Of a DNA stretch of 10,399 nt, positions 8,155 through 9,548 are shown in pieces. The notes beneath the pieces are model-generated. The model was not told the DNA's origin, searched no databases, and worked only from the letters and a program-made list of their open reading frames with translations. The DNA lies in the IMG/VR virus record IMGVR_UViG_2609459774_000002, one strand, 5' to 3'. Each line of letters starts with the position of its first letter. The first letter of the stretch is position 1. Source of the DNA: a virus (Monodnaviria; Loebvirae; Hofneiviricota; Faserviricetes; Tubulavirales; Inoviridae). Made by a program: the position numbers and the translations under genes.

Positions 8155-9381
8155 TTAAAATGGAACTGAACGATTATAGAATTTACCTGCAATTACCTGC
8201 CGATAAACATCCGGTATTGAAAATCTAATCTTCTCATCCTGTATATCCTCATGTCTGACAATAGCAGTAAAGACCGCCTCGTAATCATTACCGAGAAGAT
8301 GAAATAGCTTTGCAACAGATTTAGAGCACTGCTTACGTAACCAGTGAACATTATGTTCCAGTGCATTAATTGCCTTTTTTTCGTCCGCTAAATCAGGACG
8401 ATAAGGATTAAACTTGCGTGGTTTAGCTGGATTGATTTGTGCTGCATAATCACACAATCCCGTAAAATAACCGGCAATATCAAGCAGTACATCAACAGGA
8501 ACCCCTTTAAGCTCGACCTCAGAACGATTCCACGTACCACTGACTTTTTGTTCAAGCGCTTTATTATAGATACGCCAGTAAACACGCGATTGCCGGGAAC
8601 CAAACGTGTACATCTCCTGCTTTAATACTGCGCGACCATCCCATTTACAGGAGTTCGAAAAACCCGGACGCGGTCCCTTACCACTATAAAACGCGCCAGA
8701 GCGATGATCGCGAACAGCAGCGTCACACGTAAAAACACCATCGAAATCATCAACAGCCAAATCAATACGCTTAAGTGTCGTAATATTGAGATGTTTCAAC
8801 CATTTGAATACATCCTGAGGCTCAGTGCCACTAAATACATGAGCACATCCCAGACCGGAAATCTGTATATATACCGTGTTATTGTTTCCACCCCAGAACA
8901 CAAAGCCATGTAAATTATTACCGTCATCGTCAGAAAATAATGGCGCAGAACAGCGATAATTAAAGCCACCACGATCCCGCTCCGGTCCCATACTCAAACC
9001 AAAAGCACTGGATAACCAGATTTTAAGACGATGCAAATACGCAGCCTGAACAGCCTGATTATATTGTTCAATATGCTGTTCAATAAACGCTCTATCACCA
9101 GAAATGCCGCTACAAATTTTATCTGACTCCGCATCATCAGGAACCCAGCATCGAGTCTCAGGATCAACCATATCACGAAAGAAGGCATCACGACCGGGCA
9201 GAAAATCACGCAGACGCGGCATGGAACCATACTTACGCCAGAACTGAATAGCGCCGTCGAAAGTCTCAAGATTCTTCAGCTCACTCATGGGGAAAGTGAA
9301 TGCAAGATGGTCTATGAAGACGTGACGTATGGTTTCCTGAACCGGCTTCATTAGCAAACAGTCTCCTGATAACCGACCCAT
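8155..9381 (-). CDS. Rolling-circle replication initiator, Rep_trans / RstA-like family (element A)
   Basis: 398-408 aa; motifs FIDHLAFTF near the N-terminus and a candidate catalytic Tyr in WRIYNKA; probable true start is the ATG at about 9351 (AGGAG upstream, TAATG overlap with the preceding ORF) rather than 9381. Confidence 0.7.
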
Positions 9382-9548
9382 GAACCAGAAGGCAGTGCAA
9401 CAGATACCAGAACGAAGTCATCCCCGATTGTTTCTAAGCATGCAATGACCAGCTCATTAAACGAGCTGAAAAAATCCCATTCACCATCAATGCAGGCATT
9501 AACGCCATAATCAGGAATGTAATCGTAGTAAACAATCTCGTGAGACAT
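9351..9548 (-). CDS. Acidic 65-aa hypothetical protein, apparently translationally coupled to Rep A
   Basis: Stop TAA overlaps the probable Rep start (TAATG); D/E-rich with no hydrophobic segment; weak RBS (GGTG); function unknown. Confidence 0.35.

Follow-up and report, generated by a model that had tools for sequence, protein, structure and literature searches.

Several described systems tie a small open reading frame (ORF) or a small protein to the initiation of replication. In the plasmid systems tap/repA (R1) and repY/repZ (ColIb-P9), the upstream ORF ends at or over the start of the rep gene, the ribosome-binding site (RBS) of rep lies inside this leader, and synthesis of the initiator is expected to follow translation of the leader. 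In the Ff phages, protein X is the C-terminal part of pII, arises by internal in-frame initiation within gene II, and acts as a modulator of replication. For filamentous phages of the CTX type, accounts of the replication module usually name rstA and rstB, and the rst region, which serves regulation and replication, also encodes a small accessory protein, RstC. Here we describe a gene of 65 codons, in the following denoted the small gene, that lies directly upstream of, and overlaps, the rolling-circle initiator gene (Rep) of a filamentous (inovirus) prophage of Escherichia coli. The DNA considered, referred to as the window, is the whole stretch of 10,399 nucleotides (nt) deposited as IMG/VR record IMGVR_UViG_2609459774_000002. 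We assign the element to the CTXphi-like phages of E. coli, because its 70-amino-acid (aa) repressor is 68% identical to a CTXphi allele and its Rep is 33% identical to RstA.

The small gene resembles tap/repA and repY/repZ in its TAATG junction with Rep and in the AGGAG located inside the upstream gene. It differs from both in that its product is 64-84 aa long across the family, is predicted to be folded, and is conserved, rather than being a short arbitrary peptide, and in that no inhibitory RNA structure or pseudoknot is evident at the junction between small gene and Rep. Antisense-RNA control at the small gene was not found, no systematic search for it having been made. RstC and the product of the small gene are both small accessory proteins encoded in the rst region of CTX-type filamentous phages. 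However, RstC is encoded downstream of rstB, whereas the small gene is located upstream of an rstA-type gene and overlaps it; the small gene is also not linked to the type of repressor, and the two sequences show no similarity. Protein X is likewise a small phage protein that is genetically tied to the initiator gene and is thought to tune rolling-circle replication, but the small gene constitutes a separate upstream frame of unrelated sequence. Finally, the product resembles DNA mimics (Ocr, ArdA, Ugi, p56 and similar) in being a small, strongly acidic protein. By direct sequence membership it belongs to PHROG 3104 and, more distantly, to PHROG 2419, which include WP_000017777.1 and carry labels without known function.

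The small gene and its junction with Rep

The features at the junction are:

9351-9548, minus strand: small acidic-protein gene, 65 aa (ATG 9548-9546, TAA 9353-9351)
9363-9367, minus strand: AGGAG, Shine-Dalgarno-like sequence for Rep, within the final codons of the small gene
8155-9351, minus strand: Rep gene, 398-aa rolling-circle initiator, RstA-like (Pfam Rep_trans PF02486, E = 1.5e-21; PHROG 453)

The 65-codon ORF is a genuine protein-coding gene, with which the replication operon begins. In the approximately 25 loci examined its frame is open and its product conserved, and the reading frame is kept in every relative checked. Strong purifying selection acts on the protein sequence: in a codon-level comparison of informative, non-saturated pairs, the ratio of non-synonymous to synonymous substitution rates (dN/dS) of the small frame is 0.03-0.27, and the small genes of loci L016 and L019 differ at 16 synonymous versus 3 non-synonymous positions. 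A preliminary description, made from the letters of the DNA, had considered that the region might be a non-coding leader; this option is ruled out by the purifying selection and by the spread of the family over two bacterial orders. The remark in the same description that the product is rich in D and E is borne out by its composition (11 D/E, no K/R, pI 4.05). A Shine-Dalgarno-like sequence precedes the gene's own ATG in many lineages. In strain E24377A both genes are called by RefSeq/PGAP, namely as WP_000017777.1 (65 aa, hypothetical), to which the small protein is identical, and as WP_000805824.1 (398-aa replication initiation factor). The match to PHROG 3104 (unknown function, E = 3.5e-25) extends over residues 1-65 and profile positions 1-69 of 69. 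With its entries as a hypothetical protein and as a PHROG, the small gene is not new in itself; what is new is its functional context.

The arrangement of the junction can be read directly from the sequence and agrees with the initial account: TAA 9353-9351 shares its final A with the Rep ATG at 9351-9349, an overlap of 1 nt, and the AGGAG (9367-9363) assigned to Rep is indeed located within the small ORF. The distance from AGGAG to the Rep ATG is 11 nt, and the motif encodes part of a G-Y-Q/R-E motif that is conserved near the C-terminus of the small protein. An in-frame TTG (9357-9355), 5 nt past AGGAG, is a possible alternative and would then constitute a minor start of Rep.

The Rep frame of the window is open back to an ATG at 9381, giving an ORF of 408 aa. 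This would be compatible with a reading in which there is no separate small gene, Rep is initiated at 9381, and the region is either N-terminal coding sequence of Rep or an untranslated leader. We attach almost no weight to this reading. In place of the ATG at 9381, CTG, TTG or GTG is found in L026, L028, L029 and L030, all of them close relatives, the Rep frame contains stop codons upstream of the start in six more distant relatives (L020, L023, L024, L008, L009 and L034), and no Shine-Dalgarno-like sequence precedes the ATG at 9381, whereas the junction ATG is present in every lineage. Homologues of Rep have 7-17 residues before the IDxLAF motif, a range that includes the 12 residues of the 398-aa form and not the 22 residues of the 408-aa form. 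The dN/dS of the small frame, well below 1, also stands against a region without a gene of its own. Because the upstream ATG is not conserved, we place the start of Rep at 9351, at the TAATG and separate from the small ORF, as had been proposed.

A profile search for relatives of the small protein yielded 86 protein clusters from Enterobacterales and Vibrionaceae, all of them named 'hypothetical'. Their hosts are Escherichia, Proteus, Photorhabdus and numerous Vibrio species, V. cholerae and V. parahaemolyticus among them. An exhaustive HMMER search (1.8 billion representatives) added only three true members and was less productive than a word-indexed search that used a broader alignment. Homologues with 32-95% identity are found in metagenomic and genomic contigs, and one further member of the family resides on a Citrobacter episome; a profile scan of genome contigs, with one genome per species, returned no relative. 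The whole family, with lengths of 64-84 aa, is acidic (median pI 4.05, maximum pI 5.15, median net charge -8). The Vibrio branch comprises 71-aa proteins encoded upstream of Rep in phages of the Vf33, VfO3K6 and VALG_phi8 type; it aligns over the core IxYYD...PDY...EWD...S..L...LVS, and PHROG 2419 represents the more distant family.

In each of the approximately 25 loci, the end of the small gene runs into the rolling-circle initiator gene that follows, by 1, 4, 8, 10, 11, 13 or 17 nt. In most Escherichia-type loci and their metagenomic relatives, the Rep ATG is preceded at a distance of 6-11 nt by GGAG or GGGAG; no GGAG-type motif is present at this position in L008, L009 or the Vibrio loci. 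In E. coli-type phages the upstream neighbour is the divergent repressor gene. In Vibrio phages the repressor and the small gene are separated by an additional gene of 113-203 aa, yet the small gene still abuts Rep.

Literature searches returned no paper describing the small gene, and a paper on V. parahaemolyticus inoviruses lists ORF1-10 without it. The Vibrio homologue is unannotated in the reference genomes of Vf33, Vf12 and VfO3K6 (NC_005948, NC_005949 and NC_002362), and the homologue in VfO4K68 (L002, 6135-6350) is covered by neighbouring annotations only.

Linkage to the initiator and not to the repressor

The gene that faces the small gene and Rep is:

9686-9898, plus strand: RstR-like repressor gene, 70 aa, basic (pI 9.6), divergent from the small gene and Rep

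Pairwise identities of the small proteins follow those of the Rep proteins (r = 0.85) and are much less well correlated with those of the repressors (r = 0.42, Spearman 0.21). The repressors of the window and of L026, L028 and L004 are 99-100% identical to each other, whereas the small proteins of these three loci are 74%, 77% and 55% identical to that of the window, respectively, and the corresponding Rep proteins are 62% identical (L026), 76% identical (L028) and unrelated (L004). The opposite pattern is seen in L030, whose repressor is 38% identical to that of the window, as compared to 78% for the small protein and 81% for Rep. Likewise, the small proteins of L017, L019 and L020 are 85-97% identical and go together with repressors of three different kinds.

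Sliding-window alignments locate the points of exchange. In the comparison with L030, homology to the window sets in at the start codon of the small gene; in that with L004, the immunity block, 100% identical, stops at approximately codon 10; and in five E. coli genomes the match to the window stops 15 nt inside the small gene. These positions put the recombination junctions at the first 0-10 codons of the small gene. In CTXphi, rstR and rstA are separated by no more than 69-125 nt, and the small gene is missing; it is missing, too, in the variant of CTXphi that carries the RstR-like repressor with 68% identity to that of the window. On the basis of the identity correlations, the junctions, the absence of the gene from CTXphi and the absence of similarity to RstC, we assign the small gene to the replication module, inherited with Rep and not with the repressor; the same observations argue against a role as an antirepressor. 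The repressor gene, in turn, constitutes an immunity module whose exchange is independent of that of the small gene and Rep.

A different initiator is found in L004-L006, which derive from three E. coli assemblies. Here, a homologue with 55% identity overlaps the gene of a 666-aa initiator by 8 nt (L004 coordinates 447-3044). The homologue in L004 has 84 aa, owing to an 8-residue insertion and an acidic C-terminal extension, and the initiator matches Pfam Phage_GPA (E = 1.4e-48). No domain common to the Rep of the window and the Phage_GPA Rep of L004 was detected (best E = 2.9). The nucleotide identity between L004 and the window amounts to 100% in the immunity block and 55-70% in the small gene and falls to the random level in Rep. 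Judged from these comparisons, the small gene can go together with either of two unrelated initiators. The pairing is compatible with a contact that adapts to different initiators, with a target that both have in common, such as UvrD or HU, or with a role outside replication.

Predicted fold and possible roles of the small protein

AlphaFold2 models based on alignments of 8 and of 40 sequences were the same (pLDDT 81 and 82, respectively). The model predicts strands at residues 4-11, 15-20, 23-27 and 45-49 and a helix at residues 30-40, that is, a beta-beta-beta-alpha-beta core (residues 4-49), followed by a tail predicted with low confidence (residues 50-65, pLDDT 49-60). The conserved residues (IVYYDY, GVNA, EWDFY-SF-EL, FxLV) sit in the core. 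The longest hydrophobic run, FVLVSVALP, is modelled as a short beta-strand; the earlier statement that the protein lacks a transmembrane segment is consistent with this small globular alpha/beta domain, no transmembrane predictor having been applied. Because the codons of the tail hold the RBS and the start codon of Rep, the conservation of the tail in the enterobacterial branch may partly reflect a constraint at the nucleotide level.

A Pfam search with the small protein and with 40 family members (E up to 10) gave no recurring family, an NCBIfam search with the small protein gave no match, and a sequence profile search of the PDB gave a chance match only (E = 0.78). This is in line with the remark that the protein resembles no Ff protein, to which no direct comparison was made. 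The fold search returned no significant match, and known DNA mimics were not among the matches. HicB-like/UPF0150 domains (TTHA1013, PDB 1wv8; 3k6q), which are beta-beta-beta-alpha-beta domains also described as a partial RNase-H-like fold, are 10-14% identical to the small protein, with scores too low for a claim of homology. The small gene also differs from such systems in having no HicA-like partner gene and no Pfam match at E = 10 among 40 family members.

The reading that we favour, and to which we give an even chance, is that of a small acidic accessory protein of the replication module that is made together with the initiator and acts by protein contacts on the initiator or its cofactors. 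Of the functions suggested in the preliminary description, that of a Rep modulator agrees best with the linkage; the argument for an anti-restriction protein or DNA mimic is the conserved acidity. From the observed geometry of the junction, the selection and the linkage we infer the following on co-translation, target and effect. Ribosomes that finish the small gene would initiate Rep directly, such that both proteins would be made together, in a set ratio, from a promoter controlled by the repressor. The product would be a domain of about 50 residues with beta-beta-beta-alpha-beta topology and a flexible tail. Because of a net charge of about -8 to -11, and because the copy in the window has no Lys or Arg, binding to DNA is unlikely, and a protein-protein contact within the replication module would be the most likely mode of action. 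The contact would probably be made with the initiator, on a surface that is basic or binds DNA, or with a host cofactor on which such initiators depend; for the PF02486 initiators of CTXphi, VGJphi and Pf, the reported cofactors are UvrD and HU (PMC4863604, PMC4439123). The contact would tune the start of rolling-circle replication, and the protein would be neither a mere leader peptide nor an antagonist of the repressor.

Several points weigh against this proposal. The function is read from linkage and charge, and the tight linkage to Rep could reflect mere physical adjacency. Overlapping genes are usual in the compact genomes of inoviruses, and an overlap by itself does not prove functional coupling. 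The 11-nt spacing between AGGAG and ATG is on the long side, and since no RNA structure occludes the Rep start (z = 0.31), translation of Rep may not strictly need translation of the small gene. CTXphi replicates without the small gene, which therefore is not a general requirement of RstA-type initiators. The pairing with a Phage_GPA initiator in L004 weakens the case for a contact specific to Rep of the RstA type and suggests a host target in common, or a different role.

Among the roles that do not involve the initiator, a host-directed early protein (a DNA mimic, an anti-restriction or other anti-defence protein) is a rival to be taken seriously, given that the acidity is conserved and that the gene goes with initiators of two families, even if we consider it rather unlikely. 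In such a role the acidic surface would block a host DNA-binding enzyme, and the position at the head of the operon would ensure synthesis once the replicative form is transcribed. Family-wide acidity with few or no basic residues fits this role, as does a protein that is small and stands alone, and the association with two unrelated families of initiators fits a target outside the phage. It is less easily reconciled with the Vibrio phages, where the gene is not the first of the operon and yet remains beside Rep, nor has the gene ever been found apart from an initiator gene; similarity in sequence or structure to the known mimics was not detected. A bolder form of the favoured reading, which we hold to be doubtful, would make the protein a new regulatory subunit of rolling-circle initiators: a DNA-mimic-like acidic domain, placed on the DNA-binding surface of the initiator, UvrD or HU, held in fixed ratio to the initiator by translational coupling, portable between Rep_trans and Phage_GPA, and setting the copy number or timing of filamentous-phage replication.

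An antirepressor in the manner of RstC of the RS1 satellite, i.e., an acidic protein that inactivates the basic RstR-like repressor and locks the switch in the productive state, is suggested by the position as first gene under the putative repressor-controlled promoter in E. coli phages, by the opposite charges of the two proteins (pI 4.05 versus 9.6) and by a size close to that of RstC (74 aa). We nevertheless consider it unlikely, given that BLASTP against RstC gave no alignment at E <= 100 and that the co-inheritance expected with a cognate repressor is not seen: identical repressors go with small proteins of 55-77% identity, near-identical small proteins (85-97%) go with three different repressors, recombination junctions separate the small gene from the repressor, and the CTXphi variant with the 68%-identical repressor lacks the small gene altogether. 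Slightly less credible still is a pure translational-coupling leader of the tap/repA (R1) or repY/repZ (ColIb-P9) type, in which only the act of translation would matter and the peptide itself would have no function. The conserved stop/start overlap, the location of the Rep RBS inside the ORF in most Escherichia-type lineages, and a C-terminal tail that is predicted to be disordered and whose conservation coincides with the GGAG motif are all compatible with such a leader. The strong purifying selection and the confidently predicted fold are not expected from it, the best conserved part across orders is the N-terminal 50 residues (IVYYDY, GVNA, EWDFY-SF-EL), and there is no RNA structure that masks the Rep start. 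Known leader peptides are much shorter and are not known to be conserved in sequence.

With respect to its wider relevance, CTX-like prophages carry toxin and fitness genes in Vibrio cholerae, in pandemic V. parahaemolyticus (f237/VfO3K6) and in pathogenic E. coli. One branch of these phages has, at the initiator, a third conserved and selected gene in addition to rstA and rstB, which reference genomes such as those of Vf33, Vf12 and VfO3K6 leave unannotated. If the small protein tunes the activity of the initiator or its use of host factors, as we propose, it would add a new level at which prophage induction, copy number and the dosage of toxin genes are controlled; if it has no measurable effect, it is one more of the many small phage genes of unknown function.

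The regulatory region and other elements of the window

Between the repressor and the small gene, the intergenic region contains:

9571-9579, no strand assigned: palindrome CGCATGCGC, copy 1, just downstream of the -10 hexamer
9582-9611, minus strand: sigma-70-type promoter-like site (TTTACA, 18-nt spacer, TATGAT; 10/12 consensus matches)
9614-9622, no strand assigned: palindrome CGCATGCGC, copy 2, just upstream of the -35 hexamer

The promoter-like site is placed such that it could drive the small gene and Rep; it is a consensus match only and not significant by count (2 sites versus 1.6 expected). The exact copies of CGCATGCGC lie 43 nt apart and flank this site, and they are plausible candidates for operators of the repressor. 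Similar motifs are kept in relatives with the same repressor. As to RNA structure, 121 nt around the junction of small gene and Rep fold no better than shuffled sequences (z = 0.31, single-sequence fold), and the same holds for the 5' end. There is no sign of the Rep start being masked until the small gene is translated.

The order of the phage genes on the minus strand is small ORF, Rep, a 113-aa protein, small coat-like proteins, a pIII-like protein, Zot and secretin. Rep contains the RIYNK catalytic module and is 33% identical to RstA of CTXphi. The repressor gene has approximately 70% nucleotide identity to rstR alleles, and its product is 68% identical to an 'RstR-like protein' of CTXphi in V. 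cholerae (E = 1e-26). This match between an E. coli prophage repressor and a V. cholerae CTXphi allele indicates an immunity type that is common to both genera. Near-identical prophages (99-100%) are present in approximately 30 of 5,426 complete E. coli genomes, often in 2-5 copies. The copy in E24377A is located between the fimbrial genes ydeR/ydeS and hipBA, which we take to be the dif region.

Other loci of the family show variation at the regulatory end. The V. cholerae prophage L037 has a gene for a 185-aa RNase_T-domain protein (4441-4998) between repressor and small gene, and the Proteus locus L035 has a TIR-domain (CAP12-PCTIR) gene (1777-2403) just outside the prophage; both represent variable cargo at the regulatory end of such phages. 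The Citrobacter episome (L038, NZ_CP069805.1, 'plasmid' pB72D, 10,242 bp, circular) has the layout of repressor, small gene, Rep, Zot and secretin and also carries a transposase of the ISKpn21 family; it is probably the replicative form of an inovirus that was deposited as a plasmid. A natural in-frame fusion of the small protein to the N-terminus of Rep (P0024) was considered as evidence for an interaction and given little weight, as it results from a 1-nt deletion in a prophage interrupted by an insertion sequence. The fusion loci, L032 (1245-1592) and L033 (602-949), come from two independent samples; in both, Rep is cut by a DDE_3-type (IS630-like) insertion sequence, and they are probably decaying prophages.

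The left end of the window contains a second, unrelated filamentous-phage replication module (306-581 and 592-1641, both on the minus strand). Its initiator is of the Ff/TLCphi type (Pfam Phage_CRI plus G2P_X_C, E = 1e-63) and is followed by a gene-V-type single-stranded DNA-binding protein (Phage_DNA_bind, E = 2e-17). A CRI-type element that adjoins a CTX-like prophage recalls the TLC-CTX arrays of V. cholerae. Further to the right are two imperfect hairpins (2471-2576 and 2615-2724) of approximately 100 nt each that are 73% alike. Their arms resemble inverted dif (XerC/XerD) sites, for example AGTGCGCACAATGACGTTATGTGTAAAA, and the hairpins are reminiscent of the folded form of attP in phages of the CTXphi type, whose DNA integrates single-stranded. 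Finally, a direct repeat of 208 nt (2290-2497 and 10192-10399, 99% identical, 7,902 nt apart) holds a 57-aa ORF with a hydrophobic stretch (MNNWSEIILDLL...) and no Pfam match; the second copy reaches the end of the window, and the repeat probably marks the boundary of the prophage or a junction between tandem copies.

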